DNA of 64,000 nucleotides from Bacteroidota bacterium (GCA_013289165.1 JABDAL010000001.1:9603-73602), one strand, 5' to 3'; shown: positions 2,702-57,497, counted from the first letter of the stretch. Translations and numbers: made by a program. The notes: a model not told the origin generated them from the sequence alone.

Positions 2702-3724
2702 TTACGATAACGTATATTGCTTTACACTTTCAATAAATGTTTGTACATTCTCCATAGGGATGTCAGGGTAAACTCCGTGCCCCAGGTTTGCAATATATTC
2801 TTGTGTTCCAAATTGTTGTAGCATTTCCCGGGTTTTATTCCGGATAGTTTTGGGTTCGGCATATAAAATACAGGGGTCAAGGTTTCCTTGTAAGGTTTTA
2901 CCCTGCAACACGCTTCTCGCTTCTGAAGGGGCTATGGTCCAATCCAGTCCAATGATGCGGCAATTGAGTTTTGCTATTGCCTTCGACGAAAAAAATGCTC
3001 CCCTTGGAAATGCAATTACAGGCACAAGCGGGCTAAGTGCATCGCATATTCTGGCAATATAGGGCAATGAAAATTCTTCGTATGCTTCCGGTGAAAGTAT
3101 GCCGCCCCATGAATCAAATATCTGCACAATCTGGGCTCCGGCATTTACCTGGTCCTTGAGATAGGCTATCGTGGTCCGGGTAATTTTATCAAGCAGGCTA
3201 TGTGCCATTTCGGGCTCAGCGTATAACATCCTTTTAGCAACCGAGAAAGTTTTACTTCCCTTTCCTTCGGTCATATAGGCGAAAATAGTCCAGGGGCTGC
3301 CTGCAAAGCCAATCAAGGGCACTTTCCCGTTCAGTTCACTTTTAGTCAGTCGAATGGCTTGTGTAACGTAGCTCCAGTTTTCAATGCTGCCAATCCTAAG
3401 TGCTTCTATATCTTTCCGGCTTTGAATCGTTTTTTCAAATAGAGGCCCTTTGCTCTCCAACATCAGGTAATCTAACCCCATGGCCTCCGGCACCACCAAA
3501 ATATCAGAGAAAATGATGGCCGCATCAACCCCTAACACATCCACAGGCTCAAGGGTAGCTTCACAAGCCAAGGAAGGTGTTTTTACCAATTCTTTAAAAT
3601 CCTTCACTTTCTCCCTGAGTTTTCGGTATCCGGGTAAAATTCTTCCCGCCTGTCGCATTAACCAAACAGGTACCCGTTCCGTTTTTTCACCTTTTGCTGC
3701 CCTTAGTAATAAATCATTTTTCAT
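2702..3724 (-). CDS. hemE: uroporphyrinogen decarboxylase
   Basis: Shows the HemE N-terminal signature (RVPVWLMRQAGRILPGYRKLR) and matching overall length. Start set at the internal Met (MKNDLLLRAAKGE), which lies just downstream of a TAAGTTTG box. Confidence 0.9.
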   Translation of the reverse strand: MKNDLLLRAAKGEKTERVPVWLMRQAGRILPGYRKLREKVKDFKELVKTPSLACEATLEPVDVLGVDAAIIFSDILVVPEAMGLDYLMLESKGPLFEKTIQSRKDIEALRIGSIENWSYVTQAIRLTKSELNGKVPLIGFAGSPWTIFAYMTEGKGSKTFSVAKRMLYAEPEMAHSLLDKITRTTIAYLKDQVNAGAQIVQIFDSWGGILSPEAYEEFSLPYIARICDALSPLVPVIAFPRGAFFSSKAIAKLNCRIIGLDWTIAPSEARSVLQGKTLQGNLDPCILYAEPKTIRNKTREMLQQFGTQEYIANLGHGVYPDIPMENVQTFIESVKQYTLS

Positions 3725-3729
3725 GGGTG

Positions 3730-3737
3730 CAAACTTA
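3730..3737 (-). promoter_or_regulatory. candidate -7 box TAAGTTTG for hemE
   Basis: The reverse complement of 3730-3737 is TAAGTTTG. Its G lies 6 nt before the A of the hemE ATG, so the mRNA would be leaderless or nearly so. Confidence 0.35.
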
Positions 3738-3754
3738 TTAAAATAGGCGATAGG

Positions 3755-4135
3755 TCGTGACTGGAATATGTCACGCTCCCCATAGGGCATGACATATTTA
3801 TAATTCACAGGTAACCTGTCACTTTCATATTTTATGTCACGGTTTTCCGGTATCCGGTATCAATTCGATGTTCAAATTTTTCCCTCTTATAACTGAAATG
3901 GAGTGGGCTAAGTGTAAGTGAAATATATTGATAAACAGTCTTTTTAATATTCATTTTCCACTCTTCATTTACAGTACACTTGCCACACACTTGCATATCA
4001 AAAAGATATGTCACGGTGATCAAAAAAATACGTCATGGTGAAAATATACCTTAAGTACCTGGTTTTGTGGATATACTATCAATACGTCACATTGCCCATT
4101 TCGTAAAAAACCGTGACATAACGGTTTTTGAGTTC
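3755..4135 (-). repeat. copy 1 (inverted) of an intergenic element carrying multiple CCGTGACAT boxes
   Basis: The reverse complement of 4130..3981 aligns without gaps to 23121..23270, with 126/150 identities counted by hand. Boxes are at 4111-4119, 4084-4092, 4030-4038, 4008-4016, 3834-3842 and 3768-3776. Confidence 0.75.
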
Positions 4136-4212
4136 TATTAAAAAAACTTAACAATTTCCTCCGAACTTCTTTCCCGGATTTCGTATAAAAGGTATAACTT
4201 CGCAATTACATT

Positions 4213-6426
4213 ATGGAACTTGTTGCAGTAGTAAACGAAGCCGAATTAGAAAAGAAGGAAATACTAAACCGTTACCGGGGACTTCTCCGCTCGTGCCGGT
4301 ACAAAGTAGATGACAGCGATAAAAAGCTTATCCGGAAGGCTTTTAATATTGCCCTGGAGGCCCACAAAAATGCCCGCCGCAAATCGGGAGAGCCTTACAT
4401 ATATCACCCTTTAGCCGTAGCCCGTATTGTAGCGGAGGAAATAGGACTTGGTTCTATTGCCATTGCTTGTGCATTGCTGCACGACACGGTTGAAGATACC
4501 GATATAAGCCTCAAGGATATTGAAGGAATGTTCGGCAAAAAGGTAGCCTCTATTATTGACGGGCTCACCAAAATAGCAGGGGTATTTGATGCATCCTCTT
4601 CTCTCCAGGCCGAAAATTTCCGTAAAATGCTGCTTACCCTTGCCGAAGACGTTAGGGTGATACTTATAAAGCTGGCAGATAGGTTACACAACATGCGTAC
4701 CCTCGATTCTATGGAAAGGACCAAGCAGCTGAAAATAGCCTCTGAAACACTTTATCTCTATGCTCCACTGGCCCACCGCTTGGGGTTAAATGCTATTAAA
4801 TCAGAGTTGGAAGACTTATCGTTGAAATATACAGAGCCCGTTTTGTTTGCTGACTTAGTTCAGAAGTTAAAAGATACCCAGGCAGAGCGTACACGTTATA
4901 TACACCGGTTTATTACGCCTATCAGGGAGGCCCTCCATGACCAGAAAATGAAGTTCCGCATTTTCGGTCGCCCTAAATCCGTTTATTCCATTTGGAACAA
5001 AATAAAAAACAAGGGGGTTCCCTTTGAGGAAGTGTATGACATATTCGCTATCCGCATCATCATTGATTCTCCCACGGAACAGGAAAAGGCTGATTGTTGG
5101 AGGGTATATTCATTAGTTACCGATTATTATTACCCAAACCCGGACCGCCTGCGAGATTGGATTTCTACGCCAAAAGCCAATGGGTATGAAGCATTGCATA
5201 CAACTGTTATGGGCCCCAACGGACAATGGGTGGAAGTTCAAATTAGAAGCGAGCGTATGAATGAAGTGGCTGAAAAAGGATATGCTGCCCATTGGAAATA
5301 TAAAGAGGGTGGACACGCAGAGGAAGATCCTTTGGAAGAGTGGCTTAAAAAAATACGACTCTCTCTCGAAAACCCTGACAGCAATGCCCTTGATTTTATC
5401 GACGATTTTAAATTAAATCTTTTTGCTGACGAAATATTTGTCTTTACACCCAAAGGCGAAATGCGGTCTCTCCCCGTAAACTCTACTGCGCTTGACTTTG
5501 CATTCGATATACACTCACAGGTGGGGGCGAAGTGCATCGGTGCAAAAGTCAATCATAAATTGGTTCCTTTAAGCCATAAATTAAACAGCGGCGACCAGGT
5601 AGAAATACTTACTTCTGTTAAACAGGCTCCCAAAGCCGATTGGATAAACTATGTGGTTACAGCCAAAGCCAAGTCGGCGATAAAGGTATTATTGAAAGAA
5701 GAAAGATATAAGCAGGCCGCGGAAGGTAAGGAGATATTGAAGCGTAAAATGAGCCACCTGAAAATTGAGTTCACAGAAAAAAATATTCATGATATAGCTA
5801 CTTTTTTAAAATTGGGAGATAGCCAGGAACTCTTTTACCGTGCTGCCCTTGAAAGGGTCACTGTGAAAGAGTTGAAAGAATATCTTGATTCCAAAGATGA
5901 AAAGCAAAACGGACAGCCGCAAAACAATGCACCCACATTAGAGGAACTTGTTTCGAAAGCAAGAGGAAAGCAGGATACCCTGATGATTGGTGACAATATG
6001 GATAAGCTGGAATATAAGCTCTCACCATGTTGCAACCCTATTCCGGGAGATGACGTGTTTGGGTTTATTACCATTCACGAAGGAATAAAAATTCATCGTG
6101 TAAGCTGCCCTAATGCCATAGCCCTCATGTCCAATCACGCATACCGTATTGTAAAAGCAAAATGGACAAGCCAGAAACTGATATCTTTCCTTGCCGGAAT
6201 AAAAATAACCGGGATTGATAAAATTGGGCTGGTAAATAAGCTTACCCAGATTATATCCAAAGAACTCAATGTAAACATGCGTTCCATTAGTTTCGATACG
6301 AATGACGGAACTTTCGAAGGTACCATTATGGTATTTGTTCACGATACGGCCCACCTTACCGACCTCATCAAGAAAATCCAAAAGGTGGACGGGGTAGTTA
6401 AGGTTACAAGGATAGATACAAATTAA
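4213..6426 (+). CDS. rsh: bifunctional (p)ppGpp synthetase/hydrolase, RelA/SpoT homolog
   Basis: 737 aa. HD hydrolase motif (ALLHDTVEDT), RelA_SpoT synthetase region (YSIWNKI...DIFAIRII), and TGS and ACT-like C-terminal regions. Confidence 0.9.
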   Translation: MELVAVVNEAELEKKEILNRYRGLLRSCRYKVDDSDKKLIRKAFNIALEAHKNARRKSGEPYIYHPLAVARIVAEEIGLGSIAIACALLHDTVEDTDISLKDIEGMFGKKVASIIDGLTKIAGVFDASSSLQAENFRKMLLTLAEDVRVILIKLADRLHNMRTLDSMERTKQLKIASETLYLYAPLAHRLGLNAIKSELEDLSLKYTEPVLFADLVQKLKDTQAERTRYIHRFITPIREALHDQKMKFRIFGRPKSVYSIWNKIKNKGVPFEEVYDIFAIRIIIDSPTEQEKADCWRVYSLVTDYYYPNPDRLRDWISTPKANGYEALHTTVMGPNGQWVEVQIRSERMNEVAEKGYAAHWKYKEGGHAEEDPLEEWLKKIRLSLENPDSNALDFIDDFKLNLFADEIFVFTPKGEMRSLPVNSTALDFAFDIHSQVGAKCIGAKVNHKLVPLSHKLNSGDQVEILTSVKQAPKADWINYVVTAKAKSAIKVLLKEERYKQAAEGKEILKRKMSHLKIEFTEKNIHDIATFLKLGDSQELFYRAALERVTVKELKEYLDSKDEKQNGQPQNNAPTLEELVSKARGKQDTLMIGDNMDKLEYKLSPCCNPIPGDDVFGFITIHEGIKIHRVSCPNAIALMSNHAYRIVKAKWTSQKLISFLAGIKITGIDKIGLVNKLTQIISKELNVNMRSISFDTNDGTFEGTIMVFVHDTAHLTDLIKKIQKVDGVVKVTRIDTN

Positions 6427-8316: not shown

Positions 8317-10068
8317 TCAGAAATAGTTTACTATTCCAAAGGTTATTTTTCCCGTACCAAAATTTAGTGGGTTTCCTTTTGCATTGCCCAAGGCATAAGC
8401 CAGGGAAAAAATCCCCGCTTTTGTTTGGAAATTCATTCCTGCTCCATATCCGGAGGGCGTATCATCAAAGTATTGAATAAATGAAGGGAGGGTTTCTCTG
8501 CACCATCCTTGGTCATAAAATAAGAATAGAAAAGAATTTTGCTCTAACAGGTAGTGCAGCTCGACTGTTCCCACTGCATATTGCGATACATAAATAGATT
8601 GTTCATTAAATCCCCGTAATACTTCTAATCCTCCAATACGGAAAAGGTCGTTTAATAAAAGGGAGGGGCCTTGTATATATCCTCCATTCACCCCAAATTT
8701 TATGGCTGCCCGGGTGGCAACGGGAAAATAATAATCGGTCTTTAGAGTAGCCTGGTATTCTATGGAATTAAGTTGTAATCCTTCATAAACGGAAGGGTTA
8801 ATGGCAGAGTTTTCGCGAATGTTCTTAGTGCCTACGGCTACGGAACCTAAAAACTCGTATCCCCTGCGTGGATTATAAATATAGTCTAGTTTGCGAGCTC
8901 GGTATTCTATGCCATATAAATCGATTGTGGCATCGGTATAAGGCGGCAAGGTGATAATATTTTCCAGCCCGGATGTTGATAATAGGCTTGTAGCAATACT
9001 TTCATAGTATACCTCCAAATAATTATCTCCAATAAAAAGGTATTTCAAGCCAATTTTATTATCCAGCTTCAGATAGGTAGTATCCTGCTTAAAAAGCTGA
9101 AAATTCTCATCCAGTCCAATGGGGGTTTGGAACAGGTAGGGATAACTAAAGTTGATGGTTAGATTCTCCGTGAGTGGCTGCACGTGTTGCCAGTGGAATA
9201 TTATTTCGTCGGCCCGGTGAAAGGAGTTTTGTAGTTGAAGGCTAACGTCGCCTGTTATGGTCACATTGCCATTCTCATTTGGCAAAACCCCAAGAATACC
9301 GTTAAACTGGTTGGCATTCTTTTTTGAAATATATAGCAATATCTTCACCTTGTCATGTATAAATATCACCTGCATAGGTTTAGTTTCTGTAAGAAACGGC
9401 AAGGCATTCAGGCGGGAACTAATGGCAGCCACTTTTGATTCGTCGTAAAAATCTCCGGGTTTAATACCCAGGTACCCATAAAGATATTTGGGTGAAATTT
9501 TAAGGTTCCCCCTGATAACAATGCTGTCAATTGTTTCTGAGCTTTTTTTATCCACATTAAGTGCGGCAGAAATAGTGTTCCCATTGATAGATATGGAGTC
9601 CAATTTTAGCTGTGAAAAAGGGTACCCGGTATTTTCATAATAAGATAAAATACGGTTCATAAAATTAGATGCAGCAGTGAAATAAAAAGGCTTGTTAGTA
9701 AATATTTTTTCATGAAATCCAGACAAGTTCAGAGCTACTTCTTCCACATTCCCCTTTCGTATATATGCCCACTTGTATGGGTCGCCGGTTTTAAGAAAGG
9801 CAGTGAGCAATACACTGTCTTCTGTCATGCTGTCAACGGTTGCTGTTAAGTAAGATTCATTATGAATGGTTTCAACCAGTTTTTGTAATTCCGCTAAGCG
9901 TAACTTGGGAGCGAGAAATACCTTGTTGTAATCCGGTATTTTAAAATCTTTGGACGAAGCAGAATCTATATTTACAATTTTCAGAAATAGTTTTTTCTGT
10001 GCCTGTAAATGAAATAAACAGGATAGAAATAAAATAACAGTAAGCCCCTTATGTTTAAGCTTGAACAC
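8317..10068 (-). CDS. BamA/Omp85-family outer membrane protein (POTRA plus surface-antigen beta-barrel)
   Basis: Signal peptide present. The C-terminal barrel has Omp85-type motifs (LFRIGGLEVLRGF...) and a terminal aromatic residue (VNYF). Confidence 0.7.
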   Translation of the reverse strand: MFKLKHKGLTVILFLSCLFHLQAQKKLFLKIVNIDSASSKDFKIPDYNKVFLAPKLRLAELQKLVETIHNESYLTATVDSMTEDSVLLTAFLKTGDPYKWAYIRKGNVEEVALNLSGFHEKIFTNKPFYFTAASNFMNRILSYYENTGYPFSQLKLDSISINGNTISAALNVDKKSSETIDSIVIRGNLKISPKYLYGYLGIKPGDFYDESKVAAISSRLNALPFLTETKPMQVIFIHDKVKILLYISKKNANQFNGILGVLPNENGNVTITGDVSLQLQNSFHRADEIIFHWQHVQPLTENLTINFSYPYLFQTPIGLDENFQLFKQDTTYLKLDNKIGLKYLFIGDNYLEVYYESIATSLLSTSGLENIITLPPYTDATIDLYGIEYRARKLDYIYNPRRGYEFLGSVAVGTKNIRENSAINPSVYEGLQLNSIEYQATLKTDYYFPVATRAAIKFGVNGGYIQGPSLLLNDLFRIGGLEVLRGFNEQSIYVSQYAVGTVELHYLLEQNSFLFLFYDQGWCRETLPSFIQYFDDTPSGYGAGMNFQTKAGIFSLAYALGNAKGNPLNFGTGKITFGIVNYF

Positions 10069-11618: not shown

Positions 11619-11903
11619 TCTTCAGGACTAAGGATATGCAAATATGATAATAACTTCCCTGTAGAGTTTATATTCTTCGGCTAAACTTATACATTTTGTC
11701 TTAAATATTGTTAATCGCTCTATATTTTCCTGTTGAATCACTTTAATCAGGTTGTGTAAGGGTTTTAATGCCAATCATAATAAAATAACAATTTGGTAAT
11801 ACTAATTTTTCGATGCGAATAGATTTATTCCGCTTCATTTGTTCTGTCAATTTATACAAATCTCCCTAAATCTGATTATATGCTTTTCATATCAAAATTA
11901 AAC

Positions 11904-12469
11904 ATGATTACCCTTCCCCTTCTGGGAAATGTGGACTTAGGAGGCTCTATTTTATTTATTTTTTTCCTGTGTCTTTTAGCTGTCGTTTGTTTCGAATTTG
12001 TAAATGGATTCCATGACACTGCCAACGCAGTGGCAACTGTTATATACACCAAGGCATTAAAACCCCAGATTGCTGTACCTTGGTCTGGGTTTTGGAACTT
12101 TATGGGGGTTAATGTAGGGGGTGTGGCTGTTGCCATGGGAATATTAAAATTAGTGCCCTTAAATGAGGTAATGGCTCTTCCGGTACAAATAGGAGCCTGT
12201 TTAGTTTTGGCTGTATTGCTTACTTCCATAGTTTGGAATTTGAGTACCTGGTATTTGGGAATTCCTTGCTCCAGTTCGCACACTATGATAGGTGCTATGA
12301 TAGGTGGCAGTTTGGCATTTACCCATTTTTACCCCGGGAGTGTAAACTGGGAAAAAGCAAAGATATTGGGTTGTCATTACTCATGTCGCCGCTACTTGGT
12401 TTTGGTGCAGCTTTCTTGCTTTTAATATTATTGAGGCGCTTTGTAAAGTCTGAAAAATTATTCCAATAA
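11904..12469 (+). pseudogene. inorganic phosphate transporter (PiT/PitA family) remnant, frameshifted and 3'-truncated
   Basis: PiT signature FEFVNGFHDTANAVATVIY and ...SSSHTMIGAMIGG. The reading frame switches near 12350-12365, from ORF 11880-12425 to ORF 12233-12469. The protein stops after about 190 aa, well short of full-length PiT proteins. Confidence 0.7.
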
Positions 12470-12583
12470 AGATTATAACTTAAAATCATTCACAATGAAA
12501 CAACACAGCACCGGTCTTGCATCAGAATATTATATTTTATCAATACTGCATCTTATTATATAATTCATTAATTGGTAACACTT

Positions 12584-13154
12584 ATGACTAATTCTATCAA
12601 AGAAGGAATAACTACGTTTATTAATCACCTTGACGTAGAAAATAACAGGTCATTATCCTGGGAGCATTGCTTTAAGGCATTTGAGACCGAAAAAAATAGA
12701 TACATTAAGCTTAAATTTGACTGCTTATCTTGCCAGTTGGGGTATGTATAGAGGTTCCGGTGAACTATTACAGAATGATTATAAAATCCATAACGAAATA
12801 ATCCCGCTACTTCGTAATAAGAACATTGATGTTATAACCCTTAAAGAGCAACTGAGTTCATATTATAAAAGCAAAAATATATCGCCAACAGATACATTAA
12901 TTTCCAAGATTATTTTAGGAACATTAGGAATAACCCCTGCACTTGACAGGTATTTTGTAAAAGGTTATAAAACAAAGACTGGTAAGACTGCGGGATTTAA
13001 TGAAACTACTTTAATGGATATTAATGATTTTATAACTCGTCACCATATAGAGCTAAAAGAGTGCAGGGAGTATATTCAAATCAAAAGAGGAATGAATTAT
13101 CCTAATATGAAAATCATAGATATGTATTACTGGCAAATAGGAAAGGAGTCTTAA
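12584..13154 (+). pseudogene. conserved hypothetical gene interrupted by a +1 frameshift in an A7 run
   Basis: The ATG at 12584 opens MTNSIKEGITTFINHLDVENNRSLSWEHCFKAFETE. This frame dies shortly after the run at 12690-12696. The continuation (IDTLSLNLTAYLASWGMYRGSGELL...) is in the ORF 12681-13154. Removing one A fuses them into about 190 aa. Confidence 0.6.
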
Positions 13155-23046: not shown

Positions 23047-23068
23047 AAGTGTTTTTCAGTTATAGGTG

Positions 23069-23076
23069 CAAATGTA
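23069..23076 (-). promoter_or_regulatory. candidate -7 box TACATTTG for the M28 peptidase gene
   Basis: Reverse complement is TACATTTG, about 23 nt upstream of the ATG at 23046. Confidence 0.3.
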
Positions 23077-23119
23077 AAATTACTTTATTGATAAAAATGA
23101 GCTCGTTTTTTTTCCCATT

Positions 23120-23445
23120 CCAAAAACGGTTATGTCACGGTTTTTCACGAAACGGGCAACGTGACATAAAGATTATATACTCATAAAACCAAGTACTTAA
23201 GGCAGTTTTACACCATGACATATTTTTTTGACCACCGTGACATATCTTTTTGCGATGCAAGTATATAGCAATTATATTGCAAATAATATACGCTTAACAG
23301 CCTTATTACCAATATTTTGCCACGCTGTGACCATAGGGACGAAAAGCGCCTTTAGGAGTATGAGGCTGAAATAGCACCGTGACATAAAATAAGAAACTAA
23401 TAGACTAATAGGACGTTATGGGCATCGAGTACCGTGACATATCCT
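23120..23445 (+). repeat. copy 2 of the CCGTGACAT-box intergenic element
   Basis: See copy 1. Boxes are at 23132-23140 (inverted), 23159-23167, 23213-23221, 23235-23243, 23324-23334 (degenerate), 23377-23385 and 23432-23440. Confidence 0.75.
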
Positions 23446-23492
23446 CACCGCAATCATTTTTATAAAATGAAGCCCGCAGGCAGTGGAAACTT

Positions 23493-25190
<1,698 letters not shown>

Positions 25191-26859: not shown

Positions 26860-27116
26860 TGAACAGGCTGTTAATAAGTTCTTAAATAATGAAATTATTA
26901 AAACTGTATTTTTGTACTTAGATAGAGCGGCACTCTATTTGATGTGAAAATCTTACGAGGGTTAAAACCCAAACGAAGAGCCCAAAAACAAGTGCCGCTT
27001 GTTTGAGGGCTTTAGTTTTTATATAAAGCCATCAACATCTATAATAGAGTAAATATGTCAGGTCTGGCATATAAAGCGTGCGCGTAAAATTTATTAGCTG
27101 AAGTGAGGAAATAGTT

Positions 27117-27188
27117 GCCTCCGTAGTTTAATGAAAGAATACCAGTTTGTCTAACGCGGAGATTCAGGTTCAAGTCCTGACGGAGGCA
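27117..27188 (+). pseudogene. degenerate tRNA-Asp(GTC)-like sequence
   Basis: 72 nt with canonical tRNA geometry. Perfect acceptor stem GCCTCCG/CGGAGGC, D arm GTTT-AATGAAA-GAAT, and perfect T arm TCAGG-TTCAAGT-CCTGA. The anticodon arm CCAGT-TTGTCTA-ACGCG forms only 3 of 5 pairs and has a pyrimidine at position 37. Confidence 0.5.
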
Positions 27189-27221: not shown

Positions 27222-28013
27222 ATGAATATATTATCATTAGAAAAGAGGGGACAAATAATAACCCTCCTCGTAGAAGGTAATAGTATAAGGGCAACTGCGC
27301 GAATTACTGGCTGCTCAAAAAATACCATTGCAAAGTTATTGGAAGATATAGGAATAGCCTGCCTTAAGTTTCACGATGATATGGTACGGAATGTACGGGC
27401 AAACAGGGTCCAATGTGATGAGATATGGTCCTTTGTCTATGCCAAAAGAAAAAATGTACCGTATGATAAAATAGGTGAAGCCGGTGATGTTTGGACCTGG
27501 ACCGCTATAGATGCGGATAGTAAATTGATTATTTCATGGTTTGTTGGAGGGAGAGATATTAAAAGTGCTAACTATTTTATGCAAGATGTTGCCAGTAGGC
27601 TAACCAATAGGGTGCAATTAACAACTGATGGCTTAAAAGCCTATTTAGATGCTATAGAAGAGGCTTTTCCCAAAGGAGTAGACTTCGCTCAATTAGATAA
27701 ACAATACGCTGGAAGTAGATACGTGGGGGCCATAAAAACACCATTAATAGGCTGCCCGGATAATAAGCACATAACTACCAGCCATGTAGAGCGCCAAAAT
27801 CTCACTATGAGAATGCACATGAGACGTTTTACCAGGTTTACTAATGCCTTTTCAAAGAAAATAGAAAATCATTGCTATGCACTTGCCTTATATTTTGTGT
27901 ACTATAATTTCTGCAAGATTCATACAACTTTGCGCGTTACGCCTGCAATGGAAGCTGGATTAACTAACGATATTATGGAAATTACCGATATTGTGAAACT
28001 TATAAAATGTTAA
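27222..28013 (+). CDS. IS1-family DDE transposase (single-ORF type)
   Basis: N-terminal HTH (SIRATARITGCSKNTIAKLL). DDE region with CDEIWSFV...WTWTAIDADSKLI...LTTDGLKAY, and the IS1-type tail HVERQNLTMRMHMRRFTRFTNAFSKK. The stop codon lies inside the right TIR. Confidence 0.8.
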   Translation: MNILSLEKRGQIITLLVEGNSIRATARITGCSKNTIAKLLEDIGIACLKFHDDMVRNVRANRVQCDEIWSFVYAKRKNVPYDKIGEAGDVWTWTAIDADSKLIISWFVGGRDIKSANYFMQDVASRLTNRVQLTTDGLKAYLDAIEEAFPKGVDFAQLDKQYAGSRYVGAIKTPLIGCPDNKHITTSHVERQNLTMRMHMRRFTRFTNAFSKKIENHCYALALYFVYYNFCKIHTTLRVTPAMEAGLTNDIMEITDIVKLIKC

Positions 28014-28072: not shown

Positions 28073-28086
28073 CACCTGTTAATAGT

Positions 28087-55115: not shown

Positions 55116-55236
55116 TGCCGTAAGCATGCTTTGAATGTGAATAACAGTTCACGCTAAAAAGCAACTCTCTTTTTCAAGCAATAGGTGAATTAGAATTCCT
55201 TAATATGTAATTAACATTAAGGTAAAATCCCTTGTC

Positions 55237-55244
55237 TAATCTTG
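55237..55244 (+). promoter_or_regulatory. candidate -7 box TAATCTTG (one mismatch), duplicated at 56445-56452
   Basis: The TAATCTTGCACC block is conserved upstream of both tandem paralogs. Confidence 0.3.
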
Positions 55245-55276
55245 CACCACAAATCAAAAATAAAACCGACTTTAAC

Positions 55277-56296
55277 ATGAAAACAAAAATCAACTACTTA
55301 ATCGTATTATTTGTATTGGCAATTGCTGCCCCTAAAGCAAATGCTCAAACCCTTATTCAATACTGGGATTTTAATGGCACTCTCCCTGCCGCAGGCGGCG
55401 GAGGCGACAGCCTGGGTAACAGTAATGCAACCTATGGTGCGCTGACAGCTAACCAGGTGGCTAAAGGTTTAACGGCTGGACATATCATTTATTCCCGCCC
55501 TACCAAACACTATAACTCTGGCACAAGAGACAGTATTTTGGATAATGGCAGCGGAGGAGCAGGGGTATATGATTTCAGTAACAGCAACGATACCGGGGGT
55601 ACTGCAGCCGGAAACCTATTTGTACGCGCCCGTAATCCTGCTGATAGTTGTGTAATGTATGTATATATACCAACCACTGGTTATAAGAATATCCAATTTG
55701 AATTTGCATTGTCTGCTTCCAGTACCAAAGGTGCTAACTATGGAATATTTTCATACAGTACCAATAATGGAACAAGTTGGAATAACTTGACTAAGGCAAT
55801 GGATACTTTTAATATCAGTGGGGTGTATCGTCCCGATACCTTGCAGTTGCTAAATCCTATCTCATCAGCCAGTGCCTGGTATCCTGTTCATATAAATTTC
55901 AGCAGCGATCCGACTGTAAACAGCAATGCTAATGTGATTGTAAGGATGATGCTTGCCGGGCCTAATACACACCAGCAGGCAAGTGGAAATGCTCGCTTTG
56001 ATAATTTTGCTGTATTGGGAACTATTGTAGCCGGCGTTAATGAAATATCAGCCGAGGCAGCCGGATATAGTGTATATCCCAACCCTGTGGGCGATTTTGT
56101 AAATGTAGTTTCGAGCCAGTATACAGGTGCAAAAGTTATTACCCTGTATAATGTTGTTGGGCAGGAAGTGAGCCAGACACAAACCAGCGACTTGCAAACC
56201 GCCATCAGTACTTCTTCCTTAAATTCAGGCATGTATTTTGTGGAAATACAAGAGGTAGCAACCGGCAATAAATATACGCAAAAAATTGTAAAATAG
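55277..56296 (+). CDS. T9SS C-terminal-target (type A sorting domain) secreted protein, paralog 1
   Basis: Signal peptide MKTKINYLIVLFVLAIAAPKANAQ. C-terminal ~80 aa are Por_Secre_tail-like (YPNPVGDFVNVVS...GMYFVEIQ...QKIVK). Confidence 0.8.
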   Translation: MKTKINYLIVLFVLAIAAPKANAQTLIQYWDFNGTLPAAGGGGDSLGNSNATYGALTANQVAKGLTAGHIIYSRPTKHYNSGTRDSILDNGSGGAGVYDFSNSNDTGGTAAGNLFVRARNPADSCVMYVYIPTTGYKNIQFEFALSASSTKGANYGIFSYSTNNGTSWNNLTKAMDTFNISGVYRPDTLQLLNPISSASAWYPVHINFSSDPTVNSNANVIVRMMLAGPNTHQQASGNARFDNFAVLGTIVAGVNEISAEAAGYSVYPNPVGDFVNVVSSQYTGAKVITLYNVVGQEVSQTQTSDLQTAISTSSLNSGMYFVEIQEVATGNKYTQKIVK

Positions 56297-56354: not shown

Positions 56355-56444
56355 TTTACTATTTTGAAGTGAACTTTTAATCCAATATTAACTCCTTCGG
56401 GGATTTGTTAATCTTGAATTAATAATGAGTTAATATGGCTTGGG

Positions 56445-56452
56445 TAATCTTG
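56445..56452 (+). promoter_or_regulatory. candidate -7 box TAATCTTG (one mismatch) for paralog 2
   Basis: Same conserved TAATCTTGCACC block as at 55237. Confidence 0.3.
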
Positions 56453-56495
56453 CACCGCCAAACTCAAATAAAAACAAAAATAATACCTTTTTACC

Positions 56496-57497
56496 ATGAA
56501 AACAAAAATTAACTACTTGATTATCTTAATCGCATTAGCTTTCTTTACTCCTAAAGCAAATGCACAAACCCTTATCCAGTTTTGGGATTTTAATGCTACC
56601 CTCCCTTCCGGCGGTGCAGGAGGAGATAGCTTAGGTAGCAGTAACCCAACGTATGCATTACCGGCTAACCAGTATGCAACAGGAGCAGCAGGTAGCATTA
56701 CTTATTCTCACCCAACCGGAGGCGGTATTTTGGACAATGGTGCCGGACCAGGTTATGCATATTTCTATGATTACAGCAACAGTAATGATACTGGTGGTGC
56801 TGTAGCCGGAAACTTGTTTGTACGTGCCCGTAATCCTGCACAGAATGCATCAATGTATATTCAAATTCCTACTAACGGTTATAAGAATATTACGTTGGAC
56901 TTTGCACTTTCTGCTTCCAGTTCAAAAGGAGCTAATTATGGTATATTTTCTTACAGTACCAGTGGTATGGCAGGACCATGGAAGAATTTAACGAAAGCGA
57001 TGGATACTTTTAATATCAGTGGTGTATACCGTCCTGATACCTTGCAATTGCTAAATCCTATCACAGTAGGAAGTAACTGGTATCCTGTTCAAATTAATTT
57101 CAGCAATGATGCAAGTGTAAATTCTAACAAGTCCAATTTTATTGTGAAAATAGAATTTGAAGGACCTAATACGACACTTACAAGTGGCAATGCACGGTTC
57201 GATAACTTTGCAGCAAAAGGAACTGTTATAGCCGATGTAAATGAAATATCAGCTGAGGCTGCCGGATACAGTGTGTATCCTAACCCGGTGGGTGATTTTG
57301 TAAACGTGGTTTCCAGCCAGTATATAGGTGCAAAAGTTATTACCTTGTATAATGTAGTTGGACAAGAAGTGAGCCAAACACAAACAAGCGCTTTACAAAC
57401 AGCCATCAATACTTCTTCCCTGAATACGGGAGTGTATTTTGTGGAAATAAAAGAAGCAGGTACCGGAAATACCTACACGCAAAAAATTGTAAAATAG
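56496..57497 (+). CDS. T9SS C-terminal-target (type A sorting domain) secreted protein, paralog 2
   Basis: Collinear with paralog 1. Shares the signal peptide, GNLFVRARNPA, KGANYGIFSYST and NLTKAMDTFNISGVYRPDTLQLLNPI blocks, and a near-identical C-terminal sorting domain. Confidence 0.8.
   Translation: MKTKINYLIILIALAFFTPKANAQTLIQFWDFNATLPSGGAGGDSLGSSNPTYALPANQYATGAAGSITYSHPTGGGILDNGAGPGYAYFYDYSNSNDTGGAVAGNLFVRARNPAQNASMYIQIPTNGYKNITLDFALSASSSKGANYGIFSYSTSGMAGPWKNLTKAMDTFNISGVYRPDTLQLLNPITVGSNWYPVQINFSNDASVNSNKSNFIVKIEFEGPNTTLTSGNARFDNFAAKGTVIADVNEISAEAAGYSVYPNPVGDFVNVVSSQYIGAKVITLYNVVGQEVSQTQTSALQTAINTSSLNTGVYFVEIKEAGTGNTYTQKIVK

Follow-up and report, generated by a model that had tools for sequence, protein, structure and literature searches.

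A modular family of dispersed, non-coding intergenic repeats in a Bacteroidota genome

Two inverted copies of a non-coding element, 19 kb apart in the window (the whole 64,000-nucleotide stretch of Bacteroidota DNA analysed here), are members of a dispersed intergenic repeat family. The family is previously undescribed, and the kind of element to which it belongs is itself known. Each copy is assembled in modules around a short conserved box, and three further copies lie at unrelated sites on other contigs. We consider it probable that the copies represent a lineage-restricted, MITE- or BIME-like non-autonomous element, and we infer both that it is moved in trans and that its box has a recognition role.

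A repeat search of the window returns one inverted pair only, 3967-4130 and 23121-23284, which is 83% complementary over 164 nt. The reverse complement of 3981-4130 matches 23121-23270 without gaps at 126 of 150 positions (blastn E=1.3e-44), reproducing exactly the hand count of an earlier note on this DNA. When the reverse complement of 3731-4212 is aligned globally with 23047-23492, the whole intergenic regions align, with a stretch of little similarity past the conserved core and then two distal boxes. The first of these, ACCGTGACATAAAATA, lies at 3828-3843 on the minus strand and at 23376-23391 on the plus strand. The second, CGTGACATAT, follows 66 nt further on in copy 1 (3767-3775, minus) and 55 nt further on in copy 2 (23433-23441, plus). 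The two far-end boxes that the earlier note had placed 55-66 nt apart are therefore present in both copies, but they are not the only short motifs, because each window copy has 6-7 boxes when degenerate instances are counted. The hemE -7 box, previously placed about 40 bp from the last box, is about 30 nt from the last full box. Stops occur in all six frames of copy 1 and of copy 2, and the ORF at 4020-4205 is interrupted in copy 2, which agrees with the earlier statement that no reading frame is conserved. The neighbouring genes also proved to be those named before on the rsh, hemE and M28 peptidase sides: copy 1 lies between hemE (TIGR01464, 421 bits) and a RelA/SpoT homologue, and copy 2 between the genes for an M28 peptidase and CTP synthase. 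The features of both copies are as follows.

3750..4135, minus strand: copy 1, full length (modules A, B and C), from alignment to copy 2 and to the L191, L194 and L195 copies described below; nhmmer match 4132-3998, E=2e-41
Setting of copy 1: between the hemE start (3724) and the rsh start (4213), reading from box 1 to box 6 on the minus strand
4077..4132, minus strand: copy 1 module A, with a weak terminator-like hairpin; nhmmer with a module A model, E=6e-18
4112-4120: copy 1 box 1, in the hairpin AAAAACCG-TTATGTCA-CGGTTTTT
4083-4091: copy 1 box 2, degenerate (TGTGACGTA), 29 nt from box 1
3998..4040, minus strand: copy 1 module B, 93% identical to copy 2 over this module
4029-4037: copy 1 box 3 (CATGACGTA), a direct repeat with box 4, 22 nt start to start
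4007-4015: copy 1 box 4 (CGTGACATA), a direct repeat with box 3
3756..3843, minus strand: copy 1 module C boxes, namely box 5 (3833-3841), box 6 (3767-3775) and a half-box CGTGAC (3756-3761)
3788-3796, plus strand: copy 1 inverted partner box CATGACATA; the pair 3788/3767 makes an imperfect hairpin
23106..23462, plus strand: copy 2, full length; nhmmer match 23119-23254, E=2e-42
Setting of copy 2: between the M28 peptidase start (23046, minus) and the pyrG stop (23493, minus)
23119..23174, plus strand: copy 2 module A, with box 1 (23131-23139) inverted and box 2 at 23160-23168
23212..23254, plus strand: copy 2 module B, with box 3 (23214-23222) and box 4 (23236-23244) 22 nt apart
23376..23445, plus strand: copy 2 module C boxes, box 5 (23378-23386) and box 6 (23433-23441), 55 nt apart, with decayed inverted partners
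3730..3737, minus strand: -7 box of the hemE promoter, TAAGTTTG, of the host and just outside copy 1; also in L001 (see below)
23069..23076, minus strand: -7 box of the M28 peptidase promoter, TACATTTG, of the host and just outside copy 2; also in L196 (see below)

The repeated unit of the element is a 12-nt box with the consensus ACCGTGACATAW, derived from 25 instances in five copies. Its nine-position core, CGTGACATA, is nearly invariant across these instances, with an A at position -2 in 24, a C at -1 in 17 and a W at +1 in all 25. The exact 9-mer occurs nine times in the 64 kb, each time inside one of the two elements, which account for 1.2% of that length. Box 1 points leftward and is located in the loop of a small A/T-flanked hairpin. 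In the orientation of the element itself, boxes 2 to 6 all point rightward, and some have an inverted partner of their own. The start-to-start spacing of boxes 1-2-3-4 is 29, 54 and 22 nt and is identical in every copy.

The family comprises nested forms that range from 75 to 400 bp and contain boxes 1-2, boxes 1-4, or the full length of 350-400 bp. All five copies share a left end composed of a T-rich stretch, CAAAAAC and box 1. The short forms stop 4-12 nt past a rightward box, after box 2 in the L194 copy and four nt after box 4 in the L195 copy. In all five copies, box 1 and the last box are inverted with respect to one another and form an 11-12-nt inverted repeat, (A/T)TATGTCACGG. Since homology continues for approximately 10-25 nt to the left of box 1, through CAAAAAC and the T-rich stretch, this inverted repeat is subterminal. 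The distal module of the L191 copy is composed of box pairs that form two perfect palindromes of 13-14 nt, TTATGTCACGATT/AATCGTGACATAA and ATATGTCACGGTAT/ATACCGTGACATAT, and the first of these departs from the canonical box by a compensatory C>T/G>A change. The L191 copy looks the most intact; in copies 1 and 2 the leftward partner boxes have decayed in part or completely. Folded as single-stranded DNA, the L191 copy gives z=-5.7, copy 1 z=-3.9 and copy 2 z=-0.9. The loss of hairpin potential in copy 2 indicates that hairpins belong to the intact design and are not what old copies conserve.

Further copies were sought by scanning JGI metagenome contigs for the box 1 hairpin. Three were found on three contigs, all from IMG dataset 3300020863 (Ga0206994, a mini-metagenome).

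L191, 1941-2290: full length
L194, 5603-5674: boxes 1-2 only
L195, 11276-11147: boxes 1-4 only

The five copies occupy five unrelated intergenic sites and are 81-86% identical. The neighbours of the extra copies encode a T9SS plug protein and a 914-aa secreted protein, glutamate dehydrogenase, and RdgB/Ham1. Copy 1 lies between divergent genes, copy 2 and the L194 and L195 copies between tandem genes, and the L191 copy between convergent genes. The earlier observation that the conserved end faces the 5' end of a gene holds for both window copies but is incidental, because the L194 and L195 copies begin 26-55 nt past stop codons and the L191 copy lies between two convergent 3' ends. Two other candidates, L192 and L193, were rejected; both are the same unrelated sequence, which matches over 22 nt by chance.

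Searches beyond these contigs returned only chance matches or none. With nhmmer, no additional copy is detected among about 160 loci of relatives, nor in the ~18 kb that flank the window or another ~20 kb of Ga0206994 contigs. A 20-mer from the hairpin end gives one chance match in genome contigs, in a Victivallaceae genome, and scans of IMG/VR with two 17-mers give four single-box chance matches without extended homology. The spurious ORF 4020-4205, compared with 5.8 billion proteins, yields no candidate copy. Look-ups of hemE and pyrG with four assumed start codons find no record. A generic two-box scan (CCGTGACATA, 6-66 nt, CCGTGACATA) of 185,579 species genomes finds 107 stretches, which is about the number expected by chance. 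These are spread over mixed phyla with no clade enriched, and are mostly tandem or coding repeats.

The window comes from an uncultured soil Bacteroidota bacterium. Sample and composition data place the L191, L194 and L195 contigs in the population from which the window derives. The window's argB is found on Ga0206994_1159, in the IMG dataset shared with the three contigs, and the rdgB beside the L195 copy is present in the same SRA run (SRR8422341) as the window genes. In tetranucleotide usage, L194 and L195 correlate with the window at 0.97-0.98, a level equal to that of a contig drawn from the same organism.

The Logan k=31 short-read assembly of SRR8422341 was examined for contig ends. Three ends fall in the element, at window positions 4098 (from rsh) and 4125 (from hemE) and at position 11241 of L195. 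Over 4,125 nt the hemE-side contig matches the window with 0 mismatches. A stretch of exactly 32 nt, AAACCGTTATGTCACGGTTTTTTACGAAATGG (window 4096-4127), is identical in copy 1 and the L195 copy, and this identity predicts all three contig ends to the base, which places both loci in one sample. A near-identical twin of copy 1 was considered and rejected, since the ends at 4098 and 4125 are fully explained by the 32-nt identity with the L195 copy. The M28-side contig ends at 23150, exactly 30 nt into copy 2, where copy 2 has no 31-nt identity to any other known copy. This end weakly suggests a sixth, unseen copy; the suggestion is weak because the same patchy assembly also breaks elsewhere, for example inside pyrG at 23705. 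As seen here, the family has five copies, perhaps a sixth, in one population only.

The closest relative of the host among GTDB species representatives is L001, a boreal-lake MAG in which RSH is 91% and HemE 81% identical. L001 keeps hemE and rsh divergent and adjacent, with a spacer of 86 bp compared with 488 bp in the window. The two spacers have in common the hemE -7 box TAAGTTTG at the hemE end and the rsh leader at the opposite end, and the window's extra ~400 bp agrees within ~15 nt with the element bounds set by homology between copies. By this alignment L001 has an empty site at hemE-rsh, of the sort that the earlier note had proposed for comparison in sister strains. The adjacency of hemE and rsh is kept by no relative other than L001, so the filled and empty states are not polarisable by an outgroup; for a dispersed repeat such as this, insertion is the simpler reading. 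Relatives with ~80% identity likewise lack the element in front of the M28 gene: L196 has ~86 bp with the same TACATTTG -7 box, and L198 has ~15 bp. This support is weaker, since the upstream gene differs in L196 and L198. Of the ancestral rsh promoter that L001 retains (TTTG-N20-TAACTTTG), the window has a degraded form. The earlier note had allowed that, if only two copies existed and relatives carried the same sequence at the orthologous position, the pair would be an ordinary local duplication. Instead there are extra copies and an empty site. Copies at unrelated loci, together with the empty site in the closest relative, also bear out its view that the elements share common descent by duplication or mobility and are not convergent operators.

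The element was compared with known classes of repeat and of structured RNA, and the earlier description of it as lacking a recognisable family stands. The whole window at the Rfam gathering threshold yields two tRNAs only. Positions 3600-4300 at E<=10 give noise only (mir-1545 at 21 bits, with 78 required, Y_RNA and SNORD63), and L191, L194 and L195 at E<=1 give nothing on the element. Distant-mode blastn against plasmids and phages finds no match. A full-text search with the box sequence retrieves unrelated primers only, and the REP table of PMC6006769 does not list the box. The element shares with MITEs small size (75-400 bp), a non-coding nature (stops in all frames) and multiple copies (five). 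DnaA boxes, parS, matS, res sites, DGR repeats and group II intron fragments were discarded on general knowledge for misfits of sequence, context or dispersal.

No gene for an HUH/Y1 enzyme or a recombinase is present in the 64-kb window, and no Y1/HUH gene in about 60 kb of the extra loci. The window's one transposase is IS1-like (27222-28013) and was rejected as a partner, as no box lies at or near its ends; the rest of the window is housekeeping DNA. Target-site duplications, which the earlier note had suggested looking for, have candidates at copy 1 and L191 only, and neither is convincing. At copy 1, a 7-bp duplication AAACTTA with the terminal repeat TTAAAATAG was rejected because both AAACTTA-like sequences, 19 nt apart, are already present in the empty site of L001. 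TAAAAC(C) flanks L191 only, with nothing comparable at copy 2, L194 or L195.

The divergence between copies bears directly on how the window pair arose. Over modules A and B, identity is 0.856 for copy 1 and copy 2, 0.856 for copy 2 and L191, 0.81 for copy 1 and L191, and ~0.79-0.80 for any copy and L195. The window pair is no closer than cross-contig pairs, and is thus not a local duplication; of the two routes named in the earlier note, mobility is therefore favoured over local duplication. Two copies lying inverted and 19 kb apart in one window could also stem from an ancient local duplication of the ordinary kind, or be the two arms of a 19-kb segment that is invertible or composite, and would then be passive relics or locus-specific recombination sites, but we regard this as very improbable. 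The three copies on other contigs, beside unrelated genes, essentially refute it. Furthermore, the intervening 19 kb is housekeeping sequence (rsh, holA, a BamA-like gene, a tRNA, kynureninase, tsaC and others), there is no disturbance in the smooth rise of cumulative GC skew along the window, and the independent assembly agrees with the window over the 4,125 nt compared. Along its length the element is a mosaic. Pairwise identity is 83-90% in module A (boxes 1-2, five copies), 67-75% in the A-B linker and 89-93% in module B (boxes 3-4, full-length copies), and falls to 42-52% in the distal spacer, which is essentially unalignable. It returns to 83-89% in box 5, drops to 42-55% in the segment between boxes 5 and 6, and is 75-88% in box 6. 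Uniform decay would be expected of a duplicated segment under neutrality, but the boxes and modules A and B have been held, which implies that the boxes are functional or homogenised.

Boxes far better kept than their spacers could also point to a host cis-regulatory module, in which the boxes would be operators of a transcription factor or nucleoid protein (for example of LytTR or OmpR type, with direct repeats ~21-22 bp apart) and rsh, hemE, the M28 gene and others would form a regulon. The direct repeats of boxes 3 and 4 are 22 bp apart, or two helical turns, both window copies abut promoters, and the L001-type rsh promoter is degraded in the window. We nevertheless consider a regulon improbable. 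The spacers of modules A and B are themselves 67-75% conserved and rigidly spaced, which argues for common descent, and the position relative to promoters is inconsistent (L191 is convergent, and L194 and L195 lie past stops). L001 lacks the element in front of rsh, as do L196 and L198 in front of M28, and the two-box scan finds no excess over chance. A multi-copy structured small RNA, or a transcribed terminator or mRNA stabiliser, has still less to recommend it. RNAalifold predicts a 12-bp stem between box 1 and box 4 that is invariant in four copies, the A-tract/hairpin/T-tract at box 1 and the L191 palindromes weakly resemble a bidirectional terminator, and four of the five copies adjoin a gene 3' end. 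The covariation term of the stem is essentially nil (-0.06 to -0.56 kcal/mol), and because the paired boxes are invariant the stem is uninformative on whether structure or sequence is constrained. The stems are poor in G+C, copy 2 folds no better than shuffled sequence, and there is no Rfam match even at E<=10. No Bacteroidetes-type -7 box (TAnnTTTG) is conserved in the element on either strand; those nearby are the hemE and M28 promoters outside it.

A more substantial alternative, although still an unlikely one, is that the element is of REP or REPIN type, with box pairs serving as ssDNA hairpin substrates of a single-copy domesticated Y1 (HUH) enzyme, for example of TnpA-Y1 subclass 2.6. 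This would be a sub-mechanism of the preferred explanation. Inverted box pairs can form hairpins: boxes 1 and 2 are inverted in all five copies, with box 1 held between AAAAACCG and CGGTTTTT, and both the L191 palindromes and copy 1 fold well (z values above). The compensatory change keeps one L191 palindrome perfect. The lack of a convincing target-site duplication would fit HUH enzymes, and the mosaic is BIME-like. The Bacteroidetes-specific TnpA-Y1 subclass 2.6 is reported to have genes flanked by atypical, weak structures without GTAG, with copies elsewhere in the genome (PMC6006769), and CGTC- or TGTC-tagged REPs without a known transposase occur in Bacteroidetes (PMC3733652). Both reports serve as leads and not as tests. 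Like REPINs and BIMEs, the element is non-coding, strictly intergenic, dispersed, lineage-restricted and mosaic, contains short inverted units capable of forming hairpins, lacks a convincing target-site duplication and persists as a diverged intragenomic population. Unlike REPINs, in which the REP is a 20-40-nt palindrome with a GTAG or CGTC foot, it has as its unit a 12-nt box, ACCGTGACATAW, that is not palindromic. Boxes 2-5 are not individually palindromic, boxes 3 and 4 are direct repeats, no GTAG lies by the hairpins, and TGTC occurs inside stems and not as an unpaired foot. The geometry of the hairpins also differs from the CGTC type, with no 8-9-bp stem, 4-5-nt loop or CCA tail. The element is 75-400 bp long with rigid 29/54/22-nt spacing, and copy 2 keeps its boxes with its hairpins lost, so that sequence and not structure is conserved. 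The opposite orientations of copies 1 and 2 on one replichore (n=2) argue against a strict lagging-strand bias, and no cognate Y1 gene is found in the window or extra loci. It is rather doubtful, in particular, that the box arrays are substrates of a Bacteroidota-specific domesticated HUH/Y1 enzyme (RAYT-like 2.6) or of another box-binding recombinase. If either were true, the family would be the first sequence-defined REPIN-like replicator system in Bacteroidota, with a 12-nt non-GTAG box and alternative end pairs, and a remodelled promoter region of rsh, a stringent-response gene, would be a side effect.

The preferred explanation remains a non-autonomous element moved in trans. The 12-nt box would be recognised by a transposase or some other DNA-processing enzyme whose gene lies elsewhere in the genome, and box 1 at the left end together with any oppositely oriented box to its right would make a candidate pair of ends. 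Such alternative end pairs would account for nested forms that share a left end and stop just past a box. This enzyme might be a transposase of DDE type that uses multiple subterminal sites, or a RAYT-like HUH/Y1 enzyme that works on ssDNA hairpins. The window copies would be independent insertions, with their inverted orientation, 19-kb spacing and adjacency to rsh and M28 being incidental. The mixture of divergent, tandem and convergent sites fits tolerated insertion and not a dedicated operator or leader. Against the explanation stand the lack of a mobilising gene in the window and of a convincing target-site duplication. No two of the five copies are near-identical, so that they give no sign of recent movement, and homology beyond box 1 does not fit a simple model in which a box equals an end.

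Bacterial genomes contain few non-coding repeats, and the well-characterised families are mostly from Proteobacteria and Firmicutes. To our knowledge, repeat families of Bacteroidota are poorly described and their mobilising enzymes essentially unknown. Several transposase-binding sites per end are present in Tn7 (TnsB sites), Mu (L1-L3 and R1-R3) and IS21 (terminal repeats). The element resembles these ends in repeating one short site over 100-300 bp with one end inverted, and its fixed spacing suggests, by analogy, assembly of a nucleoprotein complex. It differs from them in having no transposition genes by the arrays, homology past the outermost box, no 5-bp duplication, and no TG...CA at the boundary. 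The pneumococcal BOX elements (boxA-boxB-boxC), the Correia/NEMIS elements of Neisseria and the MITEs of Porphyromonas gingivalis are small, gene-less and module-variable, lie by promoters and terminators, and break short-read assemblies. Their mobilising enzymes, as far as we know, are unknown or act in trans. Our element is likewise small, gene-less, modular and intergenic and breaks short-read assemblies. It is unrelated to them in sequence, with no blastn or Rfam match, and differs in its internal array of a single box. Correia elements are also generally known for clear terminal inverted repeats and target-site duplication, neither of which is clear here. The MITEs of P. gingivalis are covered in PMC4596501 and PMC5771137.

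The repeat family does not overturn current ideas. The 12-nt box, the rigid spacing and the nested short forms provide a handle for finding the mobilising enzyme. Copy 1 lies directly upstream of rsh, where the ancestral promoter looks degraded, and may affect stringent-response expression. In practical terms, the element breaks short-read assemblies of its host and attracts spurious gene calls; the ORFs at 3832-4023 and 4020-4205 are two such calls, attracted by copy 1.

The rsh promoter differs between the window and L001, the locus of the closest relative, where the hemE-rsh spacer lacks the element (the non-coding intergenic repeat). In L001, the promoter consists of TTTG, 20 nt and TAACTTTG. 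Comparison of window 4150-4212 with L001 2955-3000 shows that the window promoter is degraded relative to this arrangement: the -33 position reads TCCG rather than TTTG, the window carries an insertion of 12 nt, and TAACTTCG (4195-4202) stands as the -7 box in place of TAACTTTG. Transcription of rsh may therefore now begin from a different start, possibly one within the element, or possibly proceed through the element.

Two minus-strand ORFs of the gene track, 3832-4023 and 4020-4205, lie over copy 1 of the element and are almost certainly miscalls. Their frames are interrupted in the other element copies, and a search run for 4020-4205 returned no homologue among 5.8 billion proteins. The distal module of copy 1 also contains a 13-nt palindrome, ACAGGTAACCTGT, at 3804-3822 between box 5 (boxes being the repeated 12-nt motif) and the inverted partner box; a counterpart is absent from copy 2 and from the copy at L191, a locus on another contig.

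Further copies occur on other contigs at L194 (boxes 1-2) and L195 (boxes 1-4). Immediately past the short copy at L194 lies the following stretch:

L194 5676-6880 (= L281 11400-12600), ~1.2 kb: four small ORFs of 60-93 aa

None of these ORFs has a match in Pfam, and an ECF sigma factor gene adjoins the stretch. The Logan short-read contig SRR8431260_1414 stops at L194 5676, 11 nt beyond box 2, a hint that this junction holds a structural variant or coincides with a gap in coverage. At L195, ~1.2 kb from the element copy, the Flavo-1 RNA motif (RF01705) has a match at 9903-9985 (minus strand) that falls below the gathering score of 42 (36.2 bits, E=2e-4).

Elsewhere in the window, a transposase gene lies beside a tRNA gene:

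27117-27188: tRNA gene, 33 nt upstream of the transposase gene start
27222-28013: IS1-family-like DDE transposase gene (263 aa; HTH_38 and DDE_Tnp_IS1 matches)

The transposase scores 69 bits against the NCBIfam IS1 model, whose cut-off is 100. A contig of the same organism, assembled at k=31, stops at 28078, ~65 nt beyond the transposase stop, which suggests that the gene is part of a multi-copy IS. Near it, CCTGACATA at 27054-27062 is the sole box-like 9-mer outside the elements and looks like a chance occurrence.

Two tandem paralogous genes encode products with T9SS C-terminal sorting domains:

55232-56296: first paralogue
56496-57497: second paralogue

They share 77-83% DNA identity, and their upstream regions are likewise duplicated (55195-55265 and 56403-56473). 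Independent assemblies break just past the pair, at 57478 and 57609.

Finally, 11880-13154 has the appearance of a transporter gene that has been truncated or split. ORF 11880-12425 (181 aa) matches the PHO4 phosphate-transporter profile at positions 1-117 only, of 350, and ORF 12681-13154, which follows it, matches no family.
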